Source of the DNA: Chitinophagales bacterium
GTDB lineage: Bacteria > Bacteroidota > Bacteroidia > Chitinophagales > Chitinophagaceae
Direction of reading: 5' to 3'
Length of the DNA: 64,000 nucleotides
Assembly (NCBI GenBank): GCA_026936105.1
Contig: JAIXKI010000023.1
Location: forward strand, 35,484-99,483
Within the stretch, counting starts at the first letter, position 1; every line of letters begins with the position of its first letter. Below are positions 2,218 to 16,833 of the stretch, one piece after another. The position numbers and the translations under genes were made by a program. Under the pieces are notes generated by a model that made no database searches, had not been told where the DNA came from, and was given only the letters and a program-made list of their open reading frames with translations.

Positions 2218-2532
2218 TTAAAAAACTTCTGTATGTTTTTCTCCCAGCAAATATTTCAAATCAGCTGCGAAGCTACCGATAATTTTCATATTCCGAAAGG
2301 ATGTTTTGCTGATAGCAAAGCTGATCAGTTTATCTTCGGGATATTCTCCGGTATCAGTAAACTTTTGCAGCCTTTTCCAAAGTTCTTTGTTCCTGTGCGG
2401 GGCCATCAACCCCGTAAATACCGAGTATTGTATCCTTTCGTAGCCCGATCGCTCCAACAATTTAGCTATTTTAGCACGCTTTTTATTATCTGAAATATCA
2501 TAGCTGATAAGAAAAATGTTTTTCTTATTCAT
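2218..2532 (-). CDS. cas2: CRISPR-associated endoribonuclease Cas2
   Basis: 104 aa. The N-terminal LISYDISDNKKRAKIAKLLERSGYERIQYSVF matches the Cas2 ferredoxin-fold signature (YDIs...R..v.k.L...G.riQ.SVF). Its ATG overlaps the cas1 stop (ATGA), and it lies next to the array. Confidence 0.93.
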   Translation of the reverse strand: MNKKNIFLISYDISDNKKRAKIAKLLERSGYERIQYSVFTGLMAPHRNKELWKRLQKFTDTGEYPEDKLISFAISKTSFRNMKIIGSFAADLKYLLGEKHTEVF

Positions 2533-3563
2533 GATTCAAAGTTTTTTTCAATTTGCTTTTTCAGGTCATAGGCCAATTGCAATATGTGGTTCTTCATGGC
2601 CGTAACACGGTTATCAAACTTCGTTTTTTCTTCCAGCCAATCATTGAAGAAAGGGATCAGTAAGCTTCTGCCTTTTTTGTTAAGAATATAGCCGTACTTC
2701 TCATTCGTTTCAAACCAATCGGGCTGAATAGTTTGCCGCATGATCAGCTGAGCCAGCAATTGGTCTGCTTTGGGCCGGAAAGGTTCAATTACATCAAAAG
2801 CCAATGACGGCGTTTGATATTCATTGGCGTGCCAGATACTTATCTGGCTGTCAAGTCCTGCACAGGCCAGTGCTGTTTCCACCTGGTGATAGAGCATGCC
2901 ATATATATAGTTAAGCATAGCATTAACAGCATCTCCGGCAGGCCTGTAGCTTCTTCCCTGCATGTTCCATCCTTCTGACTGTGCCATCAGGCTTACAACC
3001 TGCCAATAATATTTTGCATTATTGCCTTCCCAACCGCGCAACCATTGCAGAAATTGCTGCTCCTCGCTAATAATAAGGGATTTTTGCTCCAGGTTTTTAA
3101 CGGCCGTTATTATTTGCAGCATGCTGCTTTCAGCTACTTTTGCCAATGCAGTTTTCCTGTTTGCCCACCAGTTAATATTTTTTAACTGCCCTTCTGTTTT
3201 TAGCAAAAGCATCTGCATAATCCATTTTAATGATTCTTTGCTTTTTGAAAATTCATATTGCTTTTTGCGAAGATCGCTGTGCCCCGAAGACAAAACTGAA
3301 TTAATTCTGACAACCGGCTGGCCGATATGGTCAAGTAATATCAGCGGTATATTGTTTTCTGCAGCGAGGATCATGGCGCTGCTTGTAATATTTACTGCTT
3401 TGGTTATAAGAATGCTGCTGATGCGCTGCGGGCTGATGATCCTGTTAAGGGAATTTGATTCCACCTGGAAGCACCGGTTGCGCTGGCTTAGCTGAAGGCC
3501 GTAAGTGTTTAATACGAGTTGCATGTAGCAGGGTTTAAAATTTAATATAGCTGTTTGCTCCAT
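2529..3563 (-). CDS. cas1: CRISPR-associated integrase Cas1
   Basis: 344 aa. It carries the NAMLNYIYGML motif and the catalytic-region motif WHANEYQTPSLAFDVIEPFRPKAD (H....sL..D..EpfRp..D). It is translationally coupled to cas2 and starts 2 nt after the RT C-terminal ORF. Confidence 0.93.
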   Translation of the reverse strand: MEQTAILNFKPCYMQLVLNTYGLQLSQRNRCFQVESNSLNRIISPQRISSILITKAVNITSSAMILAAENNIPLILLDHIGQPVVRINSVLSSGHSDLRKKQYEFSKSKESLKWIMQMLLLKTEGQLKNINWWANRKTALAKVAESSMLQIITAVKNLEQKSLIISEEQQFLQWLRGWEGNNAKYYWQVVSLMAQSEGWNMQGRSYRPAGDAVNAMLNYIYGMLYHQVETALACAGLDSQISIWHANEYQTPSLAFDVIEPFRPKADQLLAQLIMRQTIQPDWFETNEKYGYILNKKGRSLLIPFFNDWLEEKTKFDNRVTAMKNHILQLAYDLKKQIEKNFES

Positions 3564-3565
3564 AT

Positions 3566-3889
3566 TCAGGAATAAGGAAAATCATTCCAGGAAAAACTTT
3601 CCGCAAAAGGTTTTGTATTGTAGGCATCGTCATACATGCTGCTCAGCCTCTTTACCACCGGATGCTGATGCCCATATACCATTTGCAAAAAGCGCAGTTT
3701 TCCCTGCAGGTGCTCTTCAAACTGGCCTATCCATTCGGCCGGTGTATGTCCTTTTGACACTGCTGAAAATTCCAGTACATGCTTGAAACGTTTCAGGTTG
3801 CTTTCCAGGTCGGTTAGGAAGGCTTCCGGCAGTACCGGCCTGTCTTTCAATATCAGCCCCGTAACCATTTTTTCATCCGATTCGCCCAT
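3566..3889 (-). CDS. C-terminal (motif 7 / thumb) part of the reverse transcriptase, separated from the N-terminal part by an in-frame TAG
   Basis: 107 aa. It begins ...MVTGLILKDRPVLPE (a VTG motif). It is in the same frame as 3893-4603; only TAG (3893-3895) and TGG (3890-3892) lie between the two ORFs. Confidence 0.75.
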   Translation of the reverse strand: MGESDEKMVTGLILKDRPVLPEAFLTDLESNLKRFKHVLEFSAVSKGHTPAEWIGQFEEHLQGKLRFLQMVYGHQHPVVKRLSSMYDDAYNTKPFAESFSWNDFPYS

Positions 3890-3892
3890 CCA

Positions 3893-4603
3893 CTATACCT
3901 TTTCCATGTTTATGGTAAATCCTTTTTTGCCGATCATATCCTGTATGGTATAGTACTGCTCAATGCTAATGGGTTGGTTGGCAGAAAAAGTAAGGTCATC
4001 CACGTAGCGGGAATATGTCATTTTGTTTTGCAGGGAGTAACTTAACAGATCTGCATCCAGTTCACGGGTGGCAAAATTGCTGAGCACCGGAGAGGTTGGG
4101 CTGCCCATGGGCAGCCTGCCATTATAAGTAGTAAACTCTGCCAAAAAGGAACTGAGTTCCGTATTGAACTGAAAAGGTGCAGAACGGAATATGCCGGCAA
4201 CACGCATGCGGCTTACCTGGTGAAAGAAATCTTTCAGGTCAATGTTCACCATGTACTTTCTGCCGCAATGTAGCCTGGCATTGGTAAGAATGTTCCTTTT
4301 CTTATTAGCGCTTTTGGGTTGCTGAATAAATCCATAAGCAGCCCGGCTGCGGCAAAAAAAATAAGCGGCCTGCAGGTGGTCATTGAGTTTTCGCAATGCC
4401 TTTTTAAGATCTTTTGCAGGCGCTTCTATCAACCGCTGCTTCCCTTTTTGTTTTCTGACCTCAAAAACAGAATAAGGCTTTTCCAAACGCAGTTTCAGGA
4501 GTTCCGGCAGGCCGGTTTGCAGCAAACCGGCCAGGTCTGAAATACTCTTTACCCTGCATAGCTGGTGGGAAAGGGCTGTCATGTGTTCCTTTGAAAAGGC
4601 CAT
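3893..4603 (-). CDS. Reverse transcriptase (RT motifs 1-6) with retron-like signatures, truncated by an in-frame TAG
   Basis: 236 aa. Motifs seen: ILTNARLHCGRKYMVNIDLKDFFHQV (NAxxH followed by the DxxDFF motif), LPMGSPTSPVLSNF, YSRYVDDLTFS (YxDD box) and GFTINMEKV (motif 6). It lies immediately upstream of cas1-cas2. Confidence 0.88.
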   Translation of the reverse strand: MAFSKEHMTALSHQLCRVKSISDLAGLLQTGLPELLKLRLEKPYSVFEVRKQKGKQRLIEAPAKDLKKALRKLNDHLQAAYFFCRSRAAYGFIQQPKSANKKRNILTNARLHCGRKYMVNIDLKDFFHQVSRMRVAGIFRSAPFQFNTELSSFLAEFTTYNGRLPMGSPTSPVLSNFATRELDADLLSYSLQNKMTYSRYVDDLTFSANQPISIEQYYTIQDMIGKKGFTINMEKV

Positions 4604-4742
4604 GCCATAGCTATTTCCCTGTTAAATTACCAACAGTTTTTAAGAAATGCAACTGCTGGTCCGCAATGTCAAAGAGCATTTGTTTTCAACTTTAATATAT
4701 AAAATACATTTTTATCATAAACTTTTTATTCCCCGTCACTTT

Positions 4743-5879
4743 TTACATTGCTTTAATAAAATTTTTCAGTACTTCATCATTTCCGATAATTTCAATGCCT
4801 GCCAGTCTAATGCCCAATAATTTAGCCCTGTCTTTTTGTTCAGCCTTTAGCTTCGAAAAATCGTTCAGGGCAAATAAATAGTAATTGACCCATAATCCAA
4901 ATTCTTTTTTAAGTGTTGCTGCTTTATAGATAGTATTAGTAAAAAGGTAGCTTATTTTACCGGCATCATTGTCTGCAATGTCAGTTTTACATTCTATTAC
5001 GTACAATGCATTATTGTGTGTAAAAATAATGTCGTACTCATTAGGAGCATTTCCTTTTATCAACTGTACTCCCAAGCCTATTGCATCATCACTTAAGCCA
5101 AGTATATTTTTTATTTTTGTATATATATATTCCTCAAGCCATTCGCCGGTAATATATTTTATTTCCTTTTCTGTAATCGAATCATCGTTCTCAAACATTA
5201 CTCCGTTTTCGGTAAAAATCATCGCCTCATGGAAAAGGGCTGTTTCAGCAGGCTTTTCCCTTCTCAATTTTTTACCCCTGAATTGCTTTCTTATTTTCTC
5301 TGCACAGGACAATAATTTTTCTTTCTGTTCTCCAATAAAGGCTTTAAACAGTGTTTCGGTCTGTGCTGCGGGTTTTAGTAAGGTGTTTTTTGAGCCAAAT
5401 GATTTTTCGGGCACACTAACTCCATACGACATCAGGTAATCTTTCAAATCCACCCGGAATAAAAGGGATTGAGTGCTGTTTTCCATTAAAGGGAATACCC
5501 GGTGAATTTCATTTTTTTCTATAGGAACATAAAATATTTCCGAATTGCTTTTTCCCGAAAAGTGAATATACACACCCAATGACATGATTTTTGTGCCGCC
5601 GGTGATATTTACCAGCACTTTATCTTCTTCATTTATATTTAATTCATCCGATAGTTTTGAATCAATATCGTGCAAAGAATCTTCAACTACTGTTACAATA
5701 CGGCACAGTTCTTTACGAATGCCCGCAGCATTAATAATATTATCAGTCATTTTTCTTTCAGGAGATTCCATTTTTTCTGTTGACAAAAAAATATACCTGT
5801 CGGCAACCTTTTGTTCTCTGATAAATAATACATTTTGAATAGCCTGATCGCTTACGATATTTACTATGATTCTACTCAT
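4743..5879 (-). CDS. card1: Card1/Can2-type effector: CARF sensor fused to a PD-(D/E)xK nuclease
   Basis: 378 aa. The N-terminus IVNIVSDQAIQNVLFI ... NITGGTKIMS resembles the DUF1887-type CARF. The C-terminus NEYDIIFTHNNALYVIECKT gives a D...ExK restriction-endonuclease-like motif. It lies inside the type III operon. Confidence 0.8.
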   Translation of the reverse strand: MSRIIVNIVSDQAIQNVLFIREQKVADRYIFLSTEKMESPERKMTDNIINAAGIRKELCRIVTVVEDSLHDIDSKLSDELNINEEDKVLVNITGGTKIMSLGVYIHFSGKSNSEIFYVPIEKNEIHRVFPLMENSTQSLLFRVDLKDYLMSYGVSVPEKSFGSKNTLLKPAAQTETLFKAFIGEQKEKLLSCAEKIRKQFRGKKLRREKPAETALFHEAMIFTENGVMFENDDSITEKEIKYITGEWLEEYIYTKIKNILGLSDDAIGLGVQLIKGNAPNEYDIIFTHNNALYVIECKTDIADNDAGKISYLFTNTIYKAATLKKEFGLWVNYYLFALNDFSKLKAEQKDRAKLLGIRLAGIEIIGNDEVLKNFIKAM

Positions 5880-5902
5880 ATTATATTTTAAAAAAGTAAG
5901 AT

Positions 5903-6634
5903 TTAAGTTCTGTATACCGTTCCAAATCCAATGCCCGGCACCTGGCCGATTCCTATGCCATCAGGTATATGCAGGTTGCAAAAAAATGTACAATCGAAAG
6001 GTAGTTTTTTTTCTTTATAAACCTGGATTAACTTTTTAGTAGCAAGAATAGAAGATACATAAGTAATAAAAGGGAAATTGTACCTGAATCCGGTACCGGC
6101 TATCATTGTATTAATTTGCCTTGAAAGACATTCATCAAGTAATTCTGCCAGTACTTTTAGTTCACCGGATGCCAAAAAAACTTTGTATCGATGTGAATCA
6201 AGCGGCAGCCAGTTTATTACTCTATACTGTTGCTTAATGGTTAGTAATTTAATCGTATGCTTTTCTAAAGGAAATGATTTGTATTCCGAGAGGTCAACAT
6301 AATTTTGCTTCGTTCTTAAAAATTTATTTTTTATATGCTTATTCTCCTCTTTATTGAGCAGTGCAAGAATTTCGTTCACTGCATTGATTCCCTCATTTAT
6401 AGCCAATAAAGCAGCTTTGCCTTTTACCGGCTTGAATTGGATAAGCGGGTAGCGTTTTATAGTGTCATTTGTTTCTTCACTTCGGTTATAAAAAAGCTCT
6501 GTATCAATTCCCTCAGTTTGCCCGGATTCTCTCAGATCATGAATAGCAGCGGAAAAAGTTTTTTTAAAATGCACTCCATCATTTTCTTCCAATGAAAAAT
6601 TAAAAACGGTCATTTGCGTATAGACAGTATGCAT
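5903..6634 (-). CDS. cas6: Cas6-like crRNA-processing endoribonuclease
   Basis: 243 aa. It has a C-terminal glycine-rich loop GIGIGQVPGIGFG (the GhGxxxxxGhG Cas6 hallmark), a typical Cas6 size, and lies within the cas operon. Confidence 0.7.
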   Translation of the reverse strand: MHTVYTQMTVFNFSLEENDGVHFKKTFSAAIHDLRESGQTEGIDTELFYNRSEETNDTIKRYPLIQFKPVKGKAALLAINEGINAVNEILALLNKEENKHIKNKFLRTKQNYVDLSEYKSFPLEKHTIKLLTIKQQYRVINWLPLDSHRYKVFLASGELKVLAELLDECLSRQINTMIAGTGFRYNFPFITYVSSILATKKLIQVYKEKKLPFDCTFFCNLHIPDGIGIGQVPGIGFGTVYRT

Positions 6635-6869
6635 ATTTAAACCAGGTTTAAAAAATAATTTAAAAAATCATCAGGTATTACGATATTATTATTACCTCTT
6701 GACAAATCCACAATGTCCATATAAAATGTATCATCTTTAATTTCATTAATTTAAGATGTTTTATCAGGATTTTCGAAGTAAGATAGCTATCAATTATTGC
6801 CAGATATTGAATTGCACTAAAGGTCTTTTTGCCATTTTTTTGTTTGTCTTTCGTTGGAAGATATAATAA

Positions 6870-7442
6870 TTACCTGTGATGCATTTGTAGAATATGTTTA
6901 TTAGGTTTACTTTTTTTTCCACCACAATCAACAAAGATGATGGTTTTCGATTTTTTTGTATTATTTATTTCTTCAATAACATTCTTTGCAAATTTGTCTG
7001 TAAACTTATTTTTATAGCGTATTTCTTTGATATACTGTTGTGATAAACTGCTTGCCCAAAGACCTTCTCCGTCCGGGCAGCCCTTTATAATAAAAATATT
7101 TTTATTGGTATAAGCAGAATTTTTCTGTAGCAGTTGTTTAAATAATGCATAAACAAATACGGATTTGCCGCAATCAGGAGGGCCAATAAAAGCAATAACA
7201 ATATTTTTTTGAGGCACCGGATAATATACCTCAAATGCTGATTTACTTATGAATGCATCGGGTGTATTCGTTGATATAATTTTAAGAGCACTATGATGCT
7301 TTGGATCGAAAGAAGCAATCCATTTAGCAGTATTTGCTTTTACAACTTTTTTATATAAAATAAGATACAACCCAATAGGACACCGCCTGTCAACAACTAT
7401 TCCTTTATTGCTGTTCATATTTCTTGGCAGAGAAATTGCCAA
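6870..7442 (-). CDS. csx3: Csx3 (Crn3 ring-nuclease)-like domain fused to a P-loop NTPase; the 5' end is uncertain (open frame continues to 7556)
   Basis: KGIVVDRRCPIGLYLILYKK...WIASFDPKHHSALKIIS resembles the Csx3 core (kGVVisGRgPiWL...vAvYDPrl.aVVV). It is followed by Walker A GPPDCGKS and Walker B IIFVDCGG. The annotated start is a TTG. A further 38 upstream in-frame codons are stop-free but contain no ATG, GTG or TTG. Confidence 0.6.
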   Translation of the reverse strand: MAISLPRNMNSNKGIVVDRRCPIGLYLILYKKVVKANTAKWIASFDPKHHSALKIISTNTPDAFISKSAFEVYYPVPQKNIVIAFIGPPDCGKSVFVYALFKQLLQKNSAYTNKNIFIIKGCPDGEGLWASSLSQQYIKEIRYKNKFTDKFAKNVIEEINNTKKSKTIIFVDCGGKKSKPNKHILQMHHR

Positions 7443-7551
7443 GGTTTCTTCTGTCTTTATTTTATCAGTTTTGAAGAATACTCCAGGGAAATCGTACTCA
7501 AGATCAGTAACCGGCAGGTTTAATATGATAGAATTATTGTCTATATGATTA

Positions 7552-7869
7552 TTATTTTATTCTTTTCAATAATCCAAATTTATACCCTATTGCTTCTATT
7601 TGATCAATTGAAGAAAGCACTTGCCCTTCTTTAATCCTTTTTTTCAGCTGAAATATTAAAGCTTCATCCCCAACATGTTGTTTATATTGATTTCTGTTCA
7701 TTGGTATTTCTACCTGCAGTAAGTTTGATAAGATATTGCAGGTGCTTTGATGACCTATATAGGAAACAAAATCGTTTTGAATTATTTTTTTTGCATCTTC
7801 AAGGGTAAGGTATTTATATTCATAAGTGCCATAGCAAGTAACGATAGATGTATTCAGTAAAGCCAGCAT
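7552..7869 (-). CDS. crn2: DUF1874-family protein (Crn2 / AcrIII-1-type cyclic tetra-adenylate ring nuclease)
   Basis: 105 aa. YIGHQSTCNILSNLL...MNRNQYKQHVGDEALIFQLKKRIKEGQVL parallels the SIGHDSTIQLINSL...KNRVEIKL...QISQRLEEGKIL core of the viral AcrIII-1/DUF1874 family. It is on the same strand and inside the cas operon. Confidence 0.72.
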   Translation of the reverse strand: MLALLNTSIVTCYGTYEYKYLTLEDAKKIIQNDFVSYIGHQSTCNILSNLLQVEIPMNRNQYKQHVGDEALIFQLKKRIKEGQVLSSIDQIEAIGYKFGLLKRIK

Positions 7870-7898
7870 TTTTTATATCTTATTTAATGAATAATATT

Positions 7899-9002
7899 TT
7901 AAGAAACATTCTCCTTTCTTTCTGTATAATCATGTGTTCCATAGTGGCGCAATATGAGAATATTACCATCTTTTGTGCAGGTGATTCTCATTTGCTGGTT
8001 AACTCTGAAATGGTATATACTCGTATTGCCTGAATAGGGCGTCAATTGTATTCCGCCACTAGATAATTTCTGAACGCCCCCGGTGCTTAATATTAATGAA
8101 ATAGATGCTAATAATTCCTGTATTTCTACCTTCTTCCTTTTATCGGTAAGTTTTTGAAAATCTTCTTTGAAACTCTGCTCATATTGTATGTTCGGAAGGA
8201 TTAATAAATCATCAGTCAAAACTTCACTTTTAATATTATTCCACGACAGAAGTCCCCAATTTGAAAGTCCGTAAACATGATCCCATAATTCAAGAAACAA
8301 TGTTTGAGGCAGGTTTGATATTTTATCTTTGGGTTGGTAATGATCATTTCCTAATAGTGTAAATAACAAAGCATTTTGTTTGAACAAATACTTATCAATG
8401 GAAACAGGTAATTTGGGTATTTCAATCAATCCGCCGCTTTCAAAAATATAAACTATCCGGTCTGCATAAAAAGTTCCAAAAGTATTTAAAAAACCCTGCA
8501 GGCTTTTAAAGCCGCCTGTCAGATTGAAAATTACTTCATACCGGCTTTCTCTATATTCAGGAATTGTATTATCAAGATATTCTAAGAGGTTTTTTATGCC
8601 TTTATCGAAATTGGATTTGGATTCAGTATTCAATTCCGGTACAGAATAAGAAATACATTGATGCCCTTTTTCTTTAATATACTGACTTACAATATCCATA
8701 GTTACTGCAGCTAAAAAAGTATCTGTACCAATTAATAAATGAATATCAGAGGCACTGTCGTTGTACTTATCGTAATAACTTAAAATTCCATTTAGTTCAG
8801 CACTGTAAGATTTGGCAATGCCATCATCGCCGGTCAGTAATGTTTTTATTAAAGTAGTTTTCAGTTCTTCTATTCGATTTTTAAATTGAACTGGAATTTC
8901 ATGTTCTTTCTTATTGGAGAAATCAATTATTTCATTTCTGAAAGCTTCATCTGCTTTTTTAGTAAGCAGGCTTGTGCCAATGGATGAAAGGATAACCTTC
9001 AT
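7899..9002 (-). CDS. CARF-RelE fusion (Cami1-like cOA-activated mRNA interferase)
   Basis: 367 aa. The N-terminal CARF carries SSIGTSLL and NLTGGFKSLQG. The C-terminal IYHFRVNQQMRITCTKDGNILILRHYGTHDY matches the RelE/ParE toxin signature (lRvGdyRiiy....i.il.v.hR). Confidence 0.75.
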   Translation of the reverse strand: MKVILSSIGTSLLTKKADEAFRNEIIDFSNKKEHEIPVQFKNRIEELKTTLIKTLLTGDDGIAKSYSAELNGILSYYDKYNDSASDIHLLIGTDTFLAAVTMDIVSQYIKEKGHQCISYSVPELNTESKSNFDKGIKNLLEYLDNTIPEYRESRYEVIFNLTGGFKSLQGFLNTFGTFYADRIVYIFESGGLIEIPKLPVSIDKYLFKQNALLFTLLGNDHYQPKDKISNLPQTLFLELWDHVYGLSNWGLLSWNNIKSEVLTDDLLILPNIQYEQSFKEDFQKLTDKRKKVEIQELLASISLILSTGGVQKLSSGGIQLTPYSGNTSIYHFRVNQQMRITCTKDGNILILRHYGTHDYTERKENVS

Positions 9003-9022
9003 AAGAATTATTTATAAGCTTC

Positions 9023-11098
9023 TTATTTAACAACATCGGTAGGTTCGGGTAGTACAGGTCGATTTTTATATTCATTAAGCTTAGTACCCTGCTCGCCATT
9101 ATAGTAGGGAGATTCAGAAGGCGGTTTAACTTCTATTTCCATATATCTTGTCCTGTCTAACCAGGCCTCTCCTGTCACATTATCCTGCTTAAATTGCAGC
9201 ATGGTTTTGAGTTGTTTCAGGCGTGGCACTTCCCAAAGGGATTTTGCATTGTTTTTTTCTTTGTCAGTCAGTTTGCTTAAAACGTAGGTTTCAAACTGGA
9301 TTTTAAAGTCGTTTGTACTCTTATCTTTTTGCTCCGACAAAAACCATTTACTATTACCATCAAATATTTTTTTATAACGTTCCTGCCTGTCTGATAAAAC
9401 AAGCGTAGGCTCAATTTGCACAGAGCCTAAGCCAAGTGGTTTACCCATGCCGAGTTTGTGGCAATATTTTTCTTTTTCATTTTCTTTGGGCAATTCCAGC
9501 ACAAAAAGCAGGCAGCCGAGTTCTTCGGTGCTGAGGTTTTCGAAGCGGATTTTTGATTTAAAAAGAACATTCTCTTTTACGGGTATTATTGTGCCTGGAT
9601 GACTTTTTGTTTTTATGCCTGACTTTTCTACCCATGAATACGGTGCCTGGTTATCATGCGGTGTCTTTCTATGCCAATACAATTTGCTGCCCCTAATAAG
9701 TGCTTCTTTATCATTCCAATGTTTAAGCTGCTTTAACGGCGTGCCTGTTTTAAAAGGCTGTTCCAAATAATGCTGAAAAGTAGTAGGCTTGGGGGAAGAT
9801 AGAATTTTGGGTTGATACGGTGAACCTGGAAGTTTCCACTCAGTTTCTTCAGTATTTGCATCTTCAAAAAATACCCGTGAGGCAAATTCTTTCCTTTCAT
9901 CCTTTGACTTATCATCAGGCTTCTGACTTTTCTCTTTTAAAAACCCGAAAATAGCTTCCGCCATATCAAGTGTATATTTCCTGTGTTCCAAGGGCAGGTG
10001 GTCTTTTACTGAATAGTCATAAGGTATGCGGTATCTTTCTGTATGCCCGAAAGAAATGATTGTACCGCCCTTTGCAAAATAGAAAACCGGTATGCCGTCA
10101 TCTTTGAATTTATCTTCACGGTGCAATTTTTCAATTACATCATAATATTGATTTTCGTTCTTTCCTTTTTCATATTTTTTTGCATCAGTTTCGTCATTTA
10201 TATAGGCTTTAATAACCTCTTCGTCAACTAAAAAAGGCTTAACTTTTACGTCCGGTAACTCAAACAAATAATGGTGATACTTGTTATTCATCATGCCTGT
10301 ATAAACTTTCCATCCTTTCTCAACTTTTTCATACGTGAACTTCTTTTCAGAATAATTGTGATCTTCAAACCTTGAAGCTTTTACAGGTCGGATATAATAC
10401 CTATCCTCATTCTTCTTATGGAATAAATACCCATGAAGGATGTCATCGTGGTTGACTGGTACTTTTTTATTGTACAACTCTTTCAGGCTACTCCTGTCTG
10501 CCATTCCTCTTTGTGAGAATCTTTTATCATCGCTAAATCCAAGCTTAGAATAACTCACAATTTCTGCCAGCGTTCTTATCATTCCCCTCAAAGAACTTCC
10601 CGGTATAACAGGCTGTTCGTTTATAACGAAAAAATTTTCCATTTCGCCTCTTATAAATAAAGGCGTTTTTGTTGTAATGTTTAAATCAATATAGCCCGTA
10701 TATCTATTATCATAATATTTATCAAAATCCGGAATATCCTGTGCCGGAATTACTGTTTCGTTTAACGGCACAAAATTGTATGGCGCCCTTGCGGGGTCTT
10801 GAATGTTTTTTCGTGAATCTGGCACAGCACTAGATTGGCGTTGCTGGTTATGGCGTTGACCTTGATATTGTGTCTGGTGTTGTTGCTGTGAACGTTGTGG
10901 TTGGCCTTGCTTTTTTACATAATCTTTCCCTTCAAACCTGATAAGTTTCACAGGCCCGCCGTTGTTATCGAATTCAATTTCTTTCCCATTCATATCATCG
11001 GTTAATCCAAAATCGCCCATAACGGGCATTGGATTTTTAATGCCATCACCGGTAATTTTCCATGTATTTTTTTCTTTAATTAGTTTTCCTTTTTTCAT
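9023..11098 (-). CDS. Large RAMP (Cas7-like with insertions, TIGR03986-like) carrying an extra N-terminal domain and a Gln-rich linker
   Basis: 691 aa. It has the APYNFVPL start motif of the TIGR03986 RAMP family at aa ~105, the IPGSSLRGMIRTL RAMP motif, and the C-terminal glycine loop KLGMGKPLGLGSVQIEP. Residues 1-104 are additional. Confidence 0.72.
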   Translation of the reverse strand: MKKGKLIKEKNTWKITGDGIKNPMPVMGDFGLTDDMNGKEIEFDNNGGPVKLIRFEGKDYVKKQGQPQRSQQQHQTQYQGQRHNQQRQSSAVPDSRKNIQDPARAPYNFVPLNETVIPAQDIPDFDKYYDNRYTGYIDLNITTKTPLFIRGEMENFFVINEQPVIPGSSLRGMIRTLAEIVSYSKLGFSDDKRFSQRGMADRSSLKELYNKKVPVNHDDILHGYLFHKKNEDRYYIRPVKASRFEDHNYSEKKFTYEKVEKGWKVYTGMMNNKYHHYLFELPDVKVKPFLVDEEVIKAYINDETDAKKYEKGKNENQYYDVIEKLHREDKFKDDGIPVFYFAKGGTIISFGHTERYRIPYDYSVKDHLPLEHRKYTLDMAEAIFGFLKEKSQKPDDKSKDERKEFASRVFFEDANTEETEWKLPGSPYQPKILSSPKPTTFQHYLEQPFKTGTPLKQLKHWNDKEALIRGSKLYWHRKTPHDNQAPYSWVEKSGIKTKSHPGTIIPVKENVLFKSKIRFENLSTEELGCLLFVLELPKENEKEKYCHKLGMGKPLGLGSVQIEPTLVLSDRQERYKKIFDGNSKWFLSEQKDKSTNDFKIQFETYVLSKLTDKEKNNAKSLWEVPRLKQLKTMLQFKQDNVTGEAWLDRTRYMEIEVKPPSESPYYNGEQGTKLNEYKNRPVLPEPTDVVK

Positions 11099-11618
11099 TG
11101 TCAGAATTTTTTATTGCAAATTCAACAAATCTACTATCTACATAGCCCGCCTGCCGAATATCATCGGTATAACCAATATAGTTACGGGTTCTAAGAAATA
11201 TATCTTCCGAATTAAACTTCTCATTGTTTTTTAAAGGATGGGCAATAACGCTTCGAAGTTTCATATCGGTTTCTATATATTCCATTTCCTTACCCGCATC
11301 ATCTGTTCTTAATCTGCCTTTTAATTCGTTGCCGCTTCGCCAGATATGAATTTCTTTTGTCTCAGTAAAAGCCCGTATGCGAACGATATTATCTTTTTTA
11401 ATTTCTTCTTCCGAATAAACTTGTTTGTTTTTTTTTGAATCGTATAACCAGCTGACTTTTTTGTTTTTGACCTCTCCTACAAATACGCCATGATGCTGCC
11501 AGAGAACGATGTACCCTTCTTTAATTTCTTCAGCTACTACCACAATAGAGGTATAGTTATACTCTACTGAATTACTCTTAATAGGTTTTGCAACATATCT
11601 TGTTCCTTCTTTACTCAT
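11076..11618 (-). CDS. csx19: Small cas-operon protein, possibly Csx19 (call based on position only)
   Basis: 180 aa. It lies between two Cas7-type genes, as csx19 does in type III-D loci. It overlaps the downstream gene by 23 nt. I recognise no motif directly. Confidence 0.4.
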   Translation of the reverse strand: MSKEGTRYVAKPIKSNSVEYNYTSIVVVAEEIKEGYIVLWQHHGVFVGEVKNKKVSWLYDSKKNKQVYSEEEIKKDNIVRIRAFTETKEIHIWRSGNELKGRLRTDDAGKEMEYIETDMKLRSVIAHPLKNNEKFNSEDIFLRTRNYIGYTDDIRQAGYVDSRFVEFAIKNSDNEKRKTN

Positions 11619-11619
11619 T

Positions 11620-13083
11620 TTATTCAGTTTTCAGGTTGTTAATAAATGTTTGTTCCCACTCAGTAATTGTTGGCAATAAATCCTGCTTTTTAAATGTTAT
11701 TATTCCATTTTCACCGGCTTCTATTACCAATTGTTTTCCACCATAATTCACGGTGGCATGCCTGCCGGTAAGGATACCCCTGCCAATGCTTTTTTCCCCG
11801 CCTATAGGCAGGTCGGCAGTCCACAGGTCTTTCAGCAAATGCAGCAACAGCAAAGCATCAGTTTCTTTAAATTCTTTGCCGGAGAGAGCAAAATCTAAGA
11901 TCAGTTTGCCTTCTTCCCCGTTTTTGTTTTTCCACAATGGCTTGGAATTGAATAAAGCCCCGCTCATAGTGCCGCCGGTAAACCTGTCAATTTTTATCCG
12001 GTTTTGCGTCATTCCTTTTCCTGCAATATAGTTTTCTTCCACCCGGAGTTTTCCCCGAATTTCATCTTTTTCCTGATTTTGATTTTCTACATATCCAAAC
12101 AGTTCTTTTATCTTTTCTTCTGCATTGTCTATTGGCAGTGTATTGAGTATTTTCAATGCCCTGTGCCTGATAGCGCCTCTGACGGATTTGCCTGTTAATA
12201 CATTTTTGCTGTTGCTTTTCAAATGTGTTTTATCGGGTTCCTTAGCATCAATGCCGTAAGCCCCAATAATGATGGAATTTTTAATGCCGAATTCTGCATA
12301 AATATTAAATGATTTCAAAGGACATTTTATTTCTGAAATCTTTATACTTTCGAAACCAGGTCTTATATCATAGTACTCTTTTTCCCATACACATCTTTCC
12401 TCCAATGCTTTCAAATATGTAAACCATTCTTCCGAACGATTTAATTTTTTGTCTGAAAAATCAAAATACCAGGCATTGAAACCGGAGCATTGAATTTTAC
12501 CAAAGCCTGTATTGGTTTGTGCACCAATCCTGAAACTATCATCGTTTAAAATGGCTGATATGTAACTAATGTATTCCTCAAAAATCTTAGGATTGCTTAT
12601 TACTTTTCTTACGGTTACTTCCGCTCTTAGATTAAAAGTAATTTCCGGTTCCAGCAACTCGTAATCGTACTTTGCCTTTTTTTCTGTGATGCCGGTTTTG
12701 TAATCAATTTTTATCCCATCCCGCCGGGTTATTTTATTTTTAGTATCACAAGTGGTAAGCAGATCGTCTATTACAAAATGGCATTGATATTGGTCCGGGT
12801 CGGGTTTCCCGTTAATTTTTTTCTGCCCTGTACCCCAAAAAAACTTTGCTTCTTTTGTCTTCATTTTAGTTTCACCATACCATTCTGCAAAATGCTGTTT
12901 TAAAACGCCGGCGAAAGTAGATGCAGGAATGTAGGGCTTTCCATCAGGAAGGCGCATTATTTCAATATCTGCAACATCACCTATACCTTTACCAATAAGC
13001 ACAGGTGTTAATGTTTTTATTTCGGCATGTATTATGTATCTGCCGATTATCTTATGTTGTTCTTTATATAAGCAATCACCCAT
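11620..13083 (-). CDS. Double RAMP protein (Cas7-Cas7 fusion, Csm3/Cmr4-like)
   Basis: 487 aa. The first RAMP has TPVLIGKG...GKPYIPASTFAGVLKQ. The second has LTGKSVRGAIRHRALK, KIDRFTGGTMSGALF and IGGEKSIGRGIL. Confidence 0.78.
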   Translation of the reverse strand: MGDCLYKEQHKIIGRYIIHAEIKTLTPVLIGKGIGDVADIEIMRLPDGKPYIPASTFAGVLKQHFAEWYGETKMKTKEAKFFWGTGQKKINGKPDPDQYQCHFVIDDLLTTCDTKNKITRRDGIKIDYKTGITEKKAKYDYELLEPEITFNLRAEVTVRKVISNPKIFEEYISYISAILNDDSFRIGAQTNTGFGKIQCSGFNAWYFDFSDKKLNRSEEWFTYLKALEERCVWEKEYYDIRPGFESIKISEIKCPLKSFNIYAEFGIKNSIIIGAYGIDAKEPDKTHLKSNSKNVLTGKSVRGAIRHRALKILNTLPIDNAEEKIKELFGYVENQNQEKDEIRGKLRVEENYIAGKGMTQNRIKIDRFTGGTMSGALFNSKPLWKNKNGEEGKLILDFALSGKEFKETDALLLLHLLKDLWTADLPIGGEKSIGRGILTGRHATVNYGGKQLVIEAGENGIITFKKQDLLPTITEWEQTFINNLKTE

Positions 13084-15235
13084 TATTCTCCTCCTTTAAT
13101 TTTTTAAGTTTTCTAAGCATCCTGAAGAAAGTAAGCCAATAAATTGTATCATGGTCATCGTCAAACATAAATTTATGGTCTCTATTAACAAGCCCAACTT
13201 TTGACAATTTCTCGCCTGCAGGTTTCCCCATAGTATCTTTTATCCAGTTTTGCACTTCGGCTCCGGTTGCTTTCGTTTCAATCATTCTTTCCATCCGGCC
13301 TATAAGATGGTTGCTTAAATCAAGGTATTTTTTTTGTTGAGCATCTTTTATCGCATTGGCCTTCTTGCTGGTATTCTTTTCAACTTGTTTGTATTGGGCC
13401 AGAATGTCATCAAGTATTTTAACAGACGCATTATTTCCCGTTGGTTTATTTCCTTCTGCTTCGTGTTTTTTAAAGATGTCAATAGCTTTATACGATTCAA
13501 AGCGGATTTTACCAAAACCCTGTTCCTTGTATTCACCTAAGCCTTCTTTGGTTGCTTTTTGAATAGCGGTTTCAATATCTGTTGCACTCTTTAAATTAAG
13601 AACAAAAGCACTACCTTCTTTGTAAGCCGGCATCTTTGACGATTTGGATTGCCATACGGCATTGTATTGTTCTACAGTAGTAAAGGCTGCTGCAACGTCA
13701 AGAGTTTTAGTTTCTCCATTTTCCACAAATCCAGCCAATGAAAAATATTTTTTTAATTCCGTTAGTAAATTTTTGCCGTTTGCCTCCGCTTCACCATACT
13801 CATTAAGAAGAATCAAAGGGGTTTCCAATATCAATAAATATGTATTGGAGGAATTAGCATTATTGGTATCCGCTCCAATATTTCCCTTCATTCCTAACCC
13901 ATTGCTATTGGAATTATTAGTTGTTTCTGTTTCTTTAAAGACTAATTCTACTTCGCCATATTGTGCGGAACGGCTGCGCCCAATCTGTAATTTTATTTTG
14001 TTGCCAATCGTTTGAACCAATTTGTTTAACAACTTTACGTCACCTTTAATTTTTCCCAAAAAGACTTGTTCTTCGTCAAGTGCTTCATAATAAAAAATAC
14101 TACCGCCTTCTTTTTCTTCTTCCAGGCTTTTTCCTGCTGAACGATTGGGCCTTGAATTATGGAAGAAAAAAGTTGTGTGGGGCTTTGAAATTAATATATT
14201 ACTGCCGTTAATTGTGCCAAAGCCTCCTTCCGGCTTGGTAATTTCATCTTTTTTGTCTTCAGGCTTCTTAAAAACATTCACTAAATCGTCTTCCGCTTTT
14301 TTATTTTTATACTTATGAATATGCAGTGGCAAAGGAGTAGAGCCATTATAGTATAATGATTCAAAGGAAACTTTACCGGATAAAAAAATATTGAAGAAAG
14401 AATCATCTTTATGTGCATTTTTAAAGGTAAGAGCCGCCTGCTTGATGTATTGAGAGGCAAGTAAGCCCCGCAACCGGTTGCCGCTGATTATTTTTTCAGT
14501 AAATACAGTATTTTTTTCTCCCAACTGCTGCGATAAAACTACGGGTGATAGTGTCCTTATTTCTATATCTATTGTGTCACTGTTTGCTTCAAAATCTTTC
14601 CCTAATTCATTAGAGGAAGAAAAATCAATACTACATTTAATTTTTCCAAATCCCCTGTTACGTCTTGTGCCTGCATACCGGAAATTTAAGACAGCCTCAT
14701 TAAACAACTCCTTCTCTTCTTGTTCCAGCGGTTCATTTTCACCAATATTTCCTTCAAATATCAATGGCTTAGTTTCATTTTTATTAAAAAGAAATGATTT
14801 TATAACCCTGTAATTTCGGAGGCTTGTTGGCTTTGCAATCCCATTCACAATAGCAGTTTGTTGAATTTCTGTTGTATAGAACTGTTTTATATTTTCATCG
14901 GAATACACAAACGGATTTTTTTCCATTTTATCAGGTAATGCCTGTTTAACATTCTCCCAATCCTGGACATAAAAATTTCTAAACCCAAGCTTACCTTCAT
15001 TTTGTTCAGCGCCTTCTTTTCCAAAGAGAGTATTTACTTTTTTGCATATCTCTGTTTCATCATATCCTTTCATCTCCATTACTTCAAAAAGGTTTTCTTT
15101 TAGTAAGCCTTTTACTCTCCTGCCAGGCAGATAAGGAAAGCCGGTTTTGTGAAACACAATATCTGTATCAATCAGACTACCTCCTTCACCCGAACCTGCC
15201 AGCATGTATGATTGAAGTGTAATTTTCAGTTTCAT
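13076..15235 (-). CDS. csx10: Fusion of a Cas7-like RAMP, a Csx10 (Cas5-like) RAMP and a helical C-terminal tail (possible Cas11-like small subunit)
   Basis: 719 aa. Domain 1 has LAGSGEGG..FPYLPGRRVKGLLKE ... RNRGFGKIK. Domain 2 has IRTLSPVVL...IISGNRLRGLLASQ ... GRSRSAQYGEVEL ... EQGFGKIRF. The last ~110 aa are predicted helical from composition. Start and stop overlap the neighbouring genes. Confidence 0.68.
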   Translation of the reverse strand: MKLKITLQSYMLAGSGEGGSLIDTDIVFHKTGFPYLPGRRVKGLLKENLFEVMEMKGYDETEICKKVNTLFGKEGAEQNEGKLGFRNFYVQDWENVKQALPDKMEKNPFVYSDENIKQFYTTEIQQTAIVNGIAKPTSLRNYRVIKSFLFNKNETKPLIFEGNIGENEPLEQEEKELFNEAVLNFRYAGTRRNRGFGKIKCSIDFSSSNELGKDFEANSDTIDIEIRTLSPVVLSQQLGEKNTVFTEKIISGNRLRGLLASQYIKQAALTFKNAHKDDSFFNIFLSGKVSFESLYYNGSTPLPLHIHKYKNKKAEDDLVNVFKKPEDKKDEITKPEGGFGTINGSNILISKPHTTFFFHNSRPNRSAGKSLEEEKEGGSIFYYEALDEEQVFLGKIKGDVKLLNKLVQTIGNKIKLQIGRSRSAQYGEVELVFKETETTNNSNSNGLGMKGNIGADTNNANSSNTYLLILETPLILLNEYGEAEANGKNLLTELKKYFSLAGFVENGETKTLDVAAAFTTVEQYNAVWQSKSSKMPAYKEGSAFVLNLKSATDIETAIQKATKEGLGEYKEQGFGKIRFESYKAIDIFKKHEAEGNKPTGNNASVKILDDILAQYKQVEKNTSKKANAIKDAQQKKYLDLSNHLIGRMERMIETKATGAEVQNWIKDTMGKPAGEKLSKVGLVNRDHKFMFDDDHDTIYWLTFFRMLRKLKKLKEENNG

Positions 15236-16833
15236 TTATTTAAAAGTTTGAAAGGATAAAAATCTTTTAATTCAATTATGTCATAATAGGGGGTTATTTT
15301 CACCTCTTTCCCGTCATTTTTTTCATTATCTATTCTCTGCCATAGTGTTGTATCAACATCAGTATTTTCATATTTTGGCAAATAAAGTCCTCTTGCTCTT
15401 GTTTCTGTTATAAATAAATCTTGTTGAGCTTTGCTTTCTTTCAGCATGCTTCGTAATTCCATAATCTTATTATTAGGCCATTTATTGGTTATTTCTTTTA
15501 TTCTGTCTTTGAGAATTTTTATGGTGGATGCCTGTTTGTCCACCCTGTATGCCTTCATACGAAGCCTCTTTTTATCAGGAGTAGTGTATTGTTGATGTTC
15601 AATATCATTCAGGCTTCCTGCGAAACCGCCTGCCGAAATGAGATAACTTAACCATGACGACTTTTCTGTGTCTCTCGAAACTTCTTTTGCCTGTCTGGTA
15701 AGTTCTTCAGCTAACTGGTAAGCCTTATAAAACGGGTAGTGTGTTTTTACAATTGCAACCCCGCCGCAGGCAGATAAGCCTTCTTCTGTTCCATTTGGAA
15801 GAGTAATTTTTTCAGCATTCAAAAATGCTATTAGCTTTTCAGCAAGATGAACACCTAATTTTCCATGACAAATAAAGGTGAAGTCATCTCCGGCTGTTAT
15901 CAGGGGGCGTATTGGCAGAATTTTACGGCCCTGCCATTCTTTTTTCCAATCGCTTTTATTATCTCCGTAAGTGTTTAATTCAAATCCTTCGTCTTTCCCT
16001 AAGGCATCTTCGCCTTCAAACAAGCTAATTGTATAATCAATCAGCATTTTCATTACCCTATTAGCAATGCCGTTTACTTGTTTTGAGAGGCAACGTAAGT
16101 CTTTCAGCCATTCGCACTCCATAAATTTTTTCCCTATCCCGTTACCATCCACATGCACTATGGCTACATAACCTTTTTCCTGAGTTTGTCCCAACCTGTC
16201 AATCTCATCTGTAAATATGTACCCTCCTTTTAATTCACTTTTAAAATTTATTGCCAGGTTTTCTTGTGAAATTTCAGCTTTCTCAATTTTTACTTTTGAA
16301 GCAATTGAAATCCATTGTTGGGTAGAATCGTTGAATACTTCCTTTGCTTCATTAGCTAAAGGGCAATCATCAACAATGCCATGTTTTATGGGAGAGACAT
16401 TTAAATTATATAATGCTTTGTTTTGAATGAGAGCCTGTGCTAATTTTCCTTTTTCTGCTTTGAATTCTTTCTCATTAAAATCATTCTTGACTCCAAAAGC
16501 CATTCGTAATCCCGGAAATTTCTCCAGAATTGTTTTTGAATATGCTTTAATGAAATTCTTTGCGGTTTCAGTATCCTGAAATAGGAGCATTGCATTGCCA
16601 CCGCCTACATAGACTTTCCTTGCGTTAAAATTATATTCATGAGATGGTGGCGTTTCACAATTTTCCCAAGCATGAAAAATACTGTTACCGGCAACTTGCT
16701 TGAGCGCTTCATCCATTACTTCCTTATAAAGCAACTCTTCAATAATATAAGATGCTCCTATATTTTCCTTTAGCTTATTGCCGTTAAAAACATATTGCTG
16801 AATGGAAACGGTGTCAATAATTACAGCAGTCAT
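15232..16833 (-). CDS. cas10: Cas10 (type III large subunit) without an HD nuclease domain
   Basis: 533 aa. It starts directly with the palm-domain motif IIDTVSIQQYVFNGNKLKENIGASYIIEELL (compare DlSGIQ.FIy...LK.lRGrS). Other motifs are VGGGNAMLLF, VHVDGNGIGKKF and the cyclase motif ITAGDDFTFICHG (GGDD with the first G replaced by A). No H..HD segment is present at the N-terminus. Confidence 0.85.
   Translation of the reverse strand: MTAVIIDTVSIQQYVFNGNKLKENIGASYIIEELLYKEVMDEALKQVAGNSIFHAWENCETPPSHEYNFNARKVYVGGGNAMLLFQDTETAKNFIKAYSKTILEKFPGLRMAFGVKNDFNEKEFKAEKGKLAQALIQNKALYNLNVSPIKHGIVDDCPLANEAKEVFNDSTQQWISIASKVKIEKAEISQENLAINFKSELKGGYIFTDEIDRLGQTQEKGYVAIVHVDGNGIGKKFMECEWLKDLRCLSKQVNGIANRVMKMLIDYTISLFEGEDALGKDEGFELNTYGDNKSDWKKEWQGRKILPIRPLITAGDDFTFICHGKLGVHLAEKLIAFLNAEKITLPNGTEEGLSACGGVAIVKTHYPFYKAYQLAEELTRQAKEVSRDTEKSSWLSYLISAGGFAGSLNDIEHQQYTTPDKKRLRMKAYRVDKQASTIKILKDRIKEITNKWPNNKIMELRSMLKESKAQQDLFITETRARGLYLPKYENTDVDTTLWQRIDNEKNDGKEVKITPYYDIIELKDFYPFKLLNK

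Follow-up and report, generated by a model that had tools for sequence, protein, structure and literature searches.

We analysed a 64,000-nucleotide stretch of a Chitinophagales contig (JAIXKI010000023.1; hereafter the window), in which the region of interest most likely forms the ancillary module for signalling of a type III-Dv CRISPR-Cas locus, carried on the chromosome of a Bacteroidota genome of Chitinophagales type. The chromosomal setting is indicated by a transfer-messenger RNA (tmRNA) and three tRNAs that the window also encodes. An earlier prediction, made from the sequence alone (hereafter the original prediction), placed here two effectors of families that respond to cyclic tetra-adenylate (cA4), a cyclic oligoadenylate (cOA), together with two unrelated ring nucleases, all between the effector-complex genes and the adaptation module and with cas6 interspersed. 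All of the genes listed are present on the minus strand, flanked by effector-complex genes (9023-16833) and by reverse transcriptase (RT)-cas1-cas2 (2218-4603), with cas6b among them, and both effector genes are intact, so that the arrangement and the presence of two effectors of cA4-responsive families in one locus are confirmed. The second ring nuclease, a fusion of Csx3 to a nucleoside triphosphatase (NTPase), is a different matter: its gene is most likely a decayed pseudogene. The ancillary genes and cas6b are as follows.

4743-5879, minus strand: Card1/Can2-type effector, CARF + PD-(D/E)xK, intact (Pfam, PDB, PADLOC)
5903-6634, minus strand: cas6b, CRISPR RNA (crRNA)-processing endonuclease (Pfam Cas6b_N + Cas6b_C)
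6637-7544, minus strand: Csx3-SIMIBI NTPase ("Csx3-AAA") gene, most likely a pseudogene (homologue comparison, tblastn, allele of assembly L031)
7552-7869, minus strand: DUF1874 (Crn2/AcrIII-1-type) stand-alone ring nuclease, intact (Pfam, PDB, PADLOC)
7899-9002, minus strand: Cami1-type effector, CARF7 + RelE fold, intact (Pfam, PADLOC, AlphaFold2 (AF2)/Foldseek)

The assignment of the gene at 4743-5879 to the Card1/Can2 type is well founded. Its product matched Pfam CARF_Card1 (1.4e-34, profile positions 1-146 of 146) and Card1_endonuc (1.7e-16), matched Card1 in the PDB over the full length (6WXW, 4.5e-37), and was classed by PADLOC as CARF4 CARF_PDDEXK (5e-61). The ligand loop NITGGTKIMSL is identical in the window protein and in Card1. 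The nuclease motif D...ExK is also conserved, with VIECK kept and an Asp aligned to Card1 D294, a position located from the difference between the wild-type structure and that of the D294N mutant (6XL1). By analogy with Card1 of Treponema succinifaciens (6WXW) and Can2 (7BDV), with which it shares the full-length match, the CARF loop and the nuclease motif, the window protein is predicted to be a cA4-activated nuclease, although its sequence is distantly related to theirs and both activity and ligand are predicted.

The CARF-RelE fusion of the Cami1 type expected at 7899-9002 was likewise recovered. The protein matched Pfam Cas_APE2256 (4e-28) and, over its full length, PADLOC CARF7 CARF_RelE (5e-108), and it is a member of a large conserved family, with 229 homologues about 370 amino acids (aa) long. 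When its last 113 aa were compared with the PDB by sequence, only noise was returned, and the RelE fold needed structure prediction: the top Foldseek matches of the AF2 model (pLDDT 93.6) were Cami1 8PHB/8PHJ (6e-17, about 380 columns), followed by Crn1 ring nucleases, and the C-terminus matched YafQ, RelE and YoeB at about 1e-3 with TMt 0.6-0.7. In addition, NCBIfam RelE_StbE was detected at 0.006 over residues 272-357. The protein has the same CARF7 plus RelE-fold architecture as Cami1 of Allochromatium vinosum (8PHB/8PHJ), but it is only 17-19% identical to the solved protein, and its CARF domain is nearest by sequence to the Crn1 ring nucleases Sis0811 and Sso1393. S11 and K166 of this domain, aligned to S12 and K169 of Sis0811, are invariant in 41 homologues; with the Card1-like loop, they show that known catalytic or ligand residues are kept in both CARF domains. 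By analogy with Cami1, the protein is predicted to be a cA4-activated ribosome-dependent mRNA interferase. Because the Ser and Lys of Crn1 are kept, its CARF domain probably degrades cA4 as well, and an intrinsic ring-nuclease activity has been reported for Cami1 (PMC12409355).

The 105-aa protein encoded at 7552-7869 belongs, as had been proposed, to the DUF1874 family. It matched Pfam STIV_B116-like, taken here as the family called DUF1874, at 8.6e-27 (93.7 bits against a cutoff of 26), and its PDB matches were AFV3-109 (2J6B, 9e-19) and AcrIII-1 (2X4I, 8e-6; 6SCF, 3e-4). Its H40 (IGHQST) was aligned to target residue 47 of 2X4I, presumably the active-site H47. The role of the conserved histidine in AcrIII-1/Crn2 has been described (PMC8284326). 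The protein therefore resembles AcrIII-1/Crn2 (SIRV1 gp29, 2X4I/6SCF; AFV3-109, 2J6B) in its Pfam score over the gathering threshold and in the retained GH(Q/D)ST histidine, and it resembles Crn2 in being encoded within a type III locus. It differs in that its sole PADLOC match is a model named Csx16 (7.6e-22), while no Csx16-type family was found for it in the Pfam scan (E up to 1) or the NCBIfam scan (E up to 0.01), and in that its counterparts in sister loci are tightly linked to a Csx3-NTPase gene. Crn2 and Csx16 are both experimentally proven cA4 ring nucleases (PMC12409355), and therefore the function call is independent of the family label; the claim that the DUF1874 family is rare does hinge on that label.

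Lesions in the Csx3-NTPase gene

The 190-aa open reading frame (ORF) at 6870-7442, which the original prediction read as a Csx3/Crn3-like domain fused to an ATPase, starts with TTG and is only the longest fragment of a broken gene that extends over about 6637-7544. It matches Pfam Cas_csx3 at 5.6e-7 with partial coverage of the profile, and its NCBIfam Csx3 score of 29.6 bits lies under the cutoff of 55.4. Homologues of the Csx3-NTPase are 297-314 aa long. When three of them were used in tblastn, residues 5-218 fell in one frame and residues about 223-240 in another, residues about 244-256 returned to the first frame, and residues about 271-299 were again in the second, so that the C-terminal 85 aa are divided between two frames and the window copy contains at least three frame changes. 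Its end, at 6637-6639, comes immediately before the cas6b ATG, as it does in relatives. At its other end, ATA at 7542-7544 replaces the ATG of the homologues (the Met of M-x4-IILNL).

A second allele was available in L031, an independent Logan assembly (SRR29092744) that is 99.94% identical to the window across 15.5 kb. There the gene lies in a single frame and carries the same ATA, the same in-frame TAA (window 6751-6753) and the same motif lesions. The indels at about 6888, 6879, 6830 and 6775 are found in the window and are absent from L031, and a C-to-T difference from L031 at 6872 makes the stop that ends the 190-aa ORF. In both alleles the cA4-binding loop reads DRRCPIGLY instead of the (N/F/Y)G(R/A)GPIWLY found throughout the rest of the family; in the numbering of Csx3 from Archaeoglobus fulgidus (AfCsx3) the lesions are G45R, G47C and W50G. 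Both alleles also have GPPDCGKS at the Walker A motif, where other members have GPP(H/Q)SGK(S/T). Moreover, the window copy alone departs from the near-invariant G53 and W58. It is also changed at H124, S125 and H224, residues that vary little or not at all among intact homologues.

The window and L031 show nine differences, of which six, mostly indels of 1-2 nucleotides (nt), lie within 115 bp (window 6775-6888; L031 10697-10810). This clustering may come from assembly error, such as consensus error at a strain-variable site, from strain heterogeneity or from local instability. Programmed frameshifting or stop recoding was considered for the Csx3-NTPase gene and for the interrupted RT gene of the same locus, and it was rejected in view of the three or more frame changes without a slippery pattern, the L031 allele without indels and the normal stops used by neighbouring long genes. 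An alternative genetic code was also rejected, since with table 11 there are uninterrupted ORFs of 691, 719 and 819 aa.

Sister loci and the Csx3-NTPase family

The III-Dv clade of Csx3-NTPase loci, called clade A here, comprises five distinct metagenome loci and the window. A scan of genome contigs for the Csx3-NTPase gave 21 loci, none of them in this clade, and the metagenome scan added just one near-identical and one partial locus. A shared backbone runs through L001/L002, L003, L005 and L006/L007 in the order cas10, cas7-5-11, cas7-2x, csx19, cas7-insertion, a variable slot, DUF1874, Csx3-NTPase, cas6b, an effector slot, RT, cas1 and cas2; the stop of DUF1874 and the start of Csx3-NTPase overlap in L001. 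The DUF1874 gene is found in four distinct metagenome loci as well as in the window. It is missing from L006/L007, where Csx1 is instead fused to a Csx20 ring nuclease (L006 6955-8667; PADLOC CARF_HEPN_CSX20, 5e-110), and therefore the ring-nuclease function is supplied there in another way. Every clade-A locus thus has a ring nuclease besides the Csx3-NTPase. On these observations we take the Csx3-NTPase to be part of the conserved accessory core of this III-Dv lineage, and the arrangement of DUF1874, Csx3-NTPase and cas6b to be an inherited conserved module and not a one-off accumulation. The three type III-A loci L004, L008 and L009 are organised otherwise, with the Csx3-NTPase gene directly after, and overlapping, the Csx1 gene, and no other ring nuclease was seen in them.

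It is in the two slots that the window departs from its relatives. The slot after cas6b holds a CARF2 CARF-HEPN Csx1 gene in all relatives and the Card1-like gene in the window. The slot before DUF1874 is empty in relatives or holds a 181-aa SAVED-like protein or a 303-aa protein, and it holds the Cami1-like gene in the window. With regard to the co-occurrence of the four genes, for which the original prediction suggested a survey, DUF1874 and Csx3-NTPase are conserved together in sister loci, but the effector that follows cas6b there is Csx1 and not a Card1-like protein. Most likely, Card1-like and Cami1-like genes have taken the place of the usual Csx1 in the window, where the Csx3-NTPase has also become inactive. 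The locus would then be a natural example of ancillary-module turnover, with effectors swapped in two slots and a linked accessory gene decayed. As to the other occupants of the variable slot, the 181-aa protein (L001 8826-9371) matches PADLOC SAVED4 SAVED_TM at 2e-14 and the 303-aa protein (L003 2363-3274) has no family match; both may be further ancillary proteins.

The residues of the Csx3 domain point in a similar direction even where the gene is intact. AfCsx3 becomes inactive with H60A or D69A and much less active with R71A or H80A, and H57, H60 and H80 have been described as absolutely conserved in Csx3 (PMC7371418). In clade A only D69 and the G45/R46/I49 loop are kept, and a 3-aa insertion occupies the H57/H60 site. 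Neither the window copy nor any clade-A relative has H57, H60 or H80. In place of R71 the window has K, and the clade-A relatives other than P0006 have Q or T. The cA4 loop of the relatives is NGRGPIWLY. All catalytic residues are kept in the III-A clade and in most cyanobacterial, Ignavibacteria, Verrucomicrobia and Rhodothermaceae fusions. Among 1.84 billion representatives, 935 clusters were recovered by a profile search at E up to 1e-3. Scoring of the histidine triad from alignments to hidden Markov models was dropped because of the risk of register errors near the 3-aa insertion, and an alignment-free test for HxxH was used. By this test, HxxH is kept in 24 of 69 fusions with N-terminal Csx3 and in 3 of 29 with N-terminal NTPase; the other 45 of the 69 in this representative set lack it, and the GxGP(I/V)W loop is widely retained. 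Several individual loci may be mentioned here. Cyanobacterial type III loci L024 (6016-7309) and L023 (1421-3062) carry a stand-alone, histidine-intact Csx3 beside the Csx3-NTPase, and the fused copy of L024 has lost its catalytic histidines, a parallel to the pairing of DUF1874 with a dead Csx3 in the Bacteroidota clade. The histidines are also lost in the myxococcotal L015, which is too GC-rich for reliable gene boundaries by simple ORF calling.

The architecture of the intact protein was taken from the relative P0002 (PADLOC "Csx3-AAA", 2e-45), which has about 300 aa, an N-terminal Csx3 domain and a C-terminal P-loop NTPase and lies in a type III locus. The N-terminus of its AF2 model (pLDDT 85) superposes on AfCsx3 with TMt 0.75 and a root-mean-square deviation of 2.7-2.9 A. 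Thus, of the folds that had been predicted, DUF1874 holds for the 105-aa protein and Csx3 holds for this intact relative, but the 190-aa ORF of the window gives a partial Csx3 match only. For the C-terminus, the structural matches other than Csx3 were FtsY, SRP54, MinD, HypB, BcsQ and MeaB, which are SIMIBI-class NTPases, and the DxxG-like motif FVDCGG agrees with such an assignment. Pfam AAA matches were marginal and confined to the P-loop. On the model, the fused NTPase domain looks like a SIMIBI-class rather than an AAA+ enzyme. The window gene is accordingly placed as a pseudogene of the Csx3-AAA family (Shah et al. 2019, cluster 35; Synechocystis Slr7080), whose members have Csx3 followed by a P-loop domain; contrary to the name, this domain is structurally SIMIBI-like (FtsY, MinD, HypB). 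The family was named without a defined function, and Slr7080 co-fractionates with a III-B complex, its deletion having no effect on interference (PMC6546367, PMC8136920, PMC9676260). Compared with Crn3/Csx3 of A. fulgidus (AF_1864), the relatives share the Csx3 fold (P0002) and G45, R46, I49 and D69, but clade A differs in lacking the three histidines and mostly R71, and the window copy is in addition disrupted.

Since the cA4 loop is kept, the catalytic histidines are lost and an NTPase is fused, the intact Csx3-NTPase of clade A is most likely an NTPase-coupled cA4 sensor, and the role of ring nuclease would fall to another gene of the locus. More tentatively, and as a view that we hold to be less likely than not, this reading might be extended to the family: most Csx3-NTPase fusions could be dead cA4 sensors that drive a SIMIBI-class, dimerisation-dependent NTPase, a cA4-controlled effector or regulator working with Csx1. 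This would explain why a separate ring nuclease (DUF1874, Csx20 fusion or stand-alone Csx3) is always present in such loci, why the gene decayed once Card1-like and Cami1-like effectors had replaced Csx1, and why HxxH is lost in so many fusions that keep the cA4 loop. "Csx3-AAA" is perhaps counted as Crn3 in surveys, and reviews call its Csx3 part a Crn3 or ring-nuclease domain. With about two thirds of diverse fusions lacking the catalytic histidines, ring-nuclease counts would then be inflated, and a widespread cA4-sensing NTPase would remain to be characterised.

Effector complex and proposed circuit

Upstream of the ancillary genes lies the subunit set of a type III-Dv effector complex, identified from PDB and NCBIfam matches, including those to chains A, C and D of 8S9T.

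9023-11098, minus strand: Cas7 with insertion (TIGR03986 RAMP protein), 691 aa (NCBIfam 1e-124)
11076-11618, minus strand: Csx19, 180 aa (NCBIfam TIGR03984, 8e-19)
11620-13083, minus strand: Cas7-2x (two fused Cas7 domains), 487 aa (two Pfam RAMP stretches; PDB 8S9T_D, 4e-8)
13076-15235, minus strand: Cas7-Cas5(Csx10)-Cas11 fusion, 719 aa (NCBIfam Csx10; PDB 8S9T_A, 7e-6)
15232-16833, minus strand: Cas10 without HD domain, 533 aa (PDB 8S9T_C, 2e-21)

The absence of an HD domain from Cas10, proposed originally, was confirmed by the domain scan and by the alignment to 8S9T. In this alignment the Palm2 motif is ITAGDDFTF against ILGGDDLTV in Synechocystis, both Palm Asp residues are retained, and the upstream VHVDGNGIG, with its DGNG, is kept. 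The Cas10 of L001 likewise has AGDD, and those of L005 and L016 have GGDD; because the related L001 shares it, the AGDD variant is probably tolerated. The III-Dv complex of Synechocystis produces cOA that activates Csx1 (PMC11026444), and the more derived III-D2 systems make a conjugate of S-adenosylmethionine and AMP (SAM-AMP) and are paired with CorA (PMC13294483). No CorA-type gene was found among the genes from cas10 to cas2. The window thus resembles the system of Synechocystis sp. PCC 6803 (CRISPR2; PDB 8S9T-8S9X) in its subunits, including the HD-less Cas10; in Synechocystis the complex activates a CARF effector through cOA. The window differs in its Palm AGDD, in its ancillaries (Card1-like, Cami1-like and DUF1874, where Synechocystis has Csx1 and Csm6), in an adaptation module with a stand-alone RT bearing an amber stop, and in its Bacteroidota host. 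The original prediction had also stated that no HEPN effector is present. This holds between cas10 and cas2, where there is no Csx1-type (CARF2 CARF_HEPN) gene and no ancillary protein has a CARF-HEPN best match, the rest of the window lying outside the HEPN scan.

We therefore propose, as a quite probable reading of the whole, a III-Dv system with two cA4-dependent toxins, one stand-alone ring nuclease and a decayed Csx3-NTPase. In this scheme target RNA would activate the HD-less Cas10 (AGDD) of the complex, which would make cA4; cA4 would switch on the Card1-like nuclease and the Cami1-like mRNA interferase and so lead to growth arrest; and it would be cleared by the Crn2-type DUF1874 protein and probably also by the Cami1-like CARF domain. 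The Csx3-NTPase would be a relic, whose decay coincides, in a single case, with the loss of Csx1. In published surveys it is common for one locus to have several cA4 effectors, and Cami1 is found with other effectors in about 50% of cases (PMC11229360), whereas more than one ring nuclease occurs in only about 4% of ring-nuclease-positive loci (PMC12409355). Once the pseudogene with its dead Csx3 domain is discounted, the locus fits the one-ring-nuclease rule. It is thus corrected to one stand-alone ring nuclease in place of two, and its two-effector design follows a common pattern. With ring-nuclease activity reported for Cami1 itself and the module inherited, the description of the circuit as unusually elaborate is not supported.

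Several points weigh against this proposal. The choice of cA4 as messenger is drawn solely from the specificity of characterised family members, the Palm motif of Cas10 is an AGDD variant of GGDD and its cyclase activity is predicted, and the best PADLOC model for the 105-aa protein is labelled Csx16 and not Crn2. The association of Csx1 loss with Csx3-NTPase loss comes from a single genome. With regard to the pseudogene, the indels specific to the window might be consensus errors of a metagenome-assembled genome, since their clustering is far above a uniform neutral rate; only the loss of the ATG, the TAA common to both and the changes in the motifs have the support of two assemblies; and ATA can initiate translation weakly, so that a truncated product is possible. 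As to the sensor role of Csx3, it is suggested by residue conservation, and a different catalytic mechanism is possible.

These points bear on a rival reading in which the Csx3-NTPase is functional in the organism, the indels being assembly errors, and an allele of the L031 type is translated from ATA or another start, as a product of about 268 aa or by readthrough of TAA, into a cA4-sensing NTPase that works beside Crn2. The single frame of L031 with its one TAA, the abnormal clustering of the differences, which hints at consensus artefacts, and the Walker A GxxxxGKS pattern and Walker B FVDCGG still present in this copy would agree with it. We nevertheless hold it to be unlikely, since both assemblies have the ATA and the TAA, as well as the loop and Walker A substitutions at positions invariant in all other members, truncation at TAA would remove the last 38 residues with the conserved L281, R283 and P291, and all other loci found have an intact gene of about 300 aa. 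Much less probable still is the circuit as originally conceived, in which all four genes are functional and one Cas10 feeds two effectors damped by two unrelated active ring nucleases, Crn2 and an ATPase-tied Csx3/Crn3. Pfam and NCBIfam do find a Csx3 match and a P-loop in the 190-aa ORF, the NCBI annotation has a 215-aa protein at this site, and DUF1874 and Csx3-NTPase adjoin in relatives. However, the gene has no ATG, contains the shared TAA and the frame changes, scores below the NCBIfam cutoff and has lost the glycines and the tryptophan of its cA4 loop, and even the intact relatives are without the histidines, and mostly without the arginine, that AfCsx3 needs (PMC7371418). Finally, the DUF1874 gene could be a viral anti-CRISPR (AcrIII-1) left by a mobile element, by which the locus is suppressed and not tuned. 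The family is far commoner in viruses than in cells (PMC12409355), the best PDB matches of the protein are viral and its gene has a G+C content (GC) of 30.5%, the lowest of the locus. Against this, the gene lies inside the cas operon on the same strand, and four distinct related loci from metagenomes carry it in the same place, with its stop overlapping the start of the following gene in L001. Neither phage nor integrase genes were noticed among its neighbours in the window or in the related loci, where no dedicated phage-gene search was made. We regard the anti-CRISPR explanation as barely credible. We thus retain the reading with two effectors, one stand-alone ring nuclease and a decayed Csx3-NTPase.

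Adaptation genes, spacers and base composition

The remaining features of the locus lie downstream of the Card1-like gene.

1-2134, no strand assigned: CRISPR array, at least 31 near-identical copies of the 35-nt repeat GTCGCAGTGGTTACAAACTAATTCCTCACTCTTAT, spacers of 32-39 nt, extending beyond the window start
2218-2532, minus strand: cas2 (Pfam CRISPR_Cas2, 1e-15)
2529-3563, minus strand: cas1 (Pfam Cas_Cas1, 1e-61)
3566-4603, minus strand: RT, interrupted by an in-frame TAG at 3893-3895

The RT is 66% identical, without gaps, to its homologue in L001, an intact RT of 344 aa in which Lys at residue 238 stands in place of the window TAG. Because the independent assembly L031 has the same TAG split, the RT may be a second recently inactivated gene of the locus.

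A comparison of the spacers with one another at k=10 found nothing. Local alignment revealed three related spacers (813-849, 885-917 and 1155-1188), which overlap in one target region in the same orientation with point differences, at scores of 18-21, where shuffled sequences reached at most 13. It appears from this that related invaders were sampled more than once. There is also a step in GC inside 2218-16833, where RT and cas1 have 43-47%, the interference and ancillary genes have 30-38%, and the rest of the window has 41.5%. The lowest values, about 30.5%, are those of the DUF1874 gene and the Csx3-NTPase pseudogene. In view of this step, the modules may be of differing origin.

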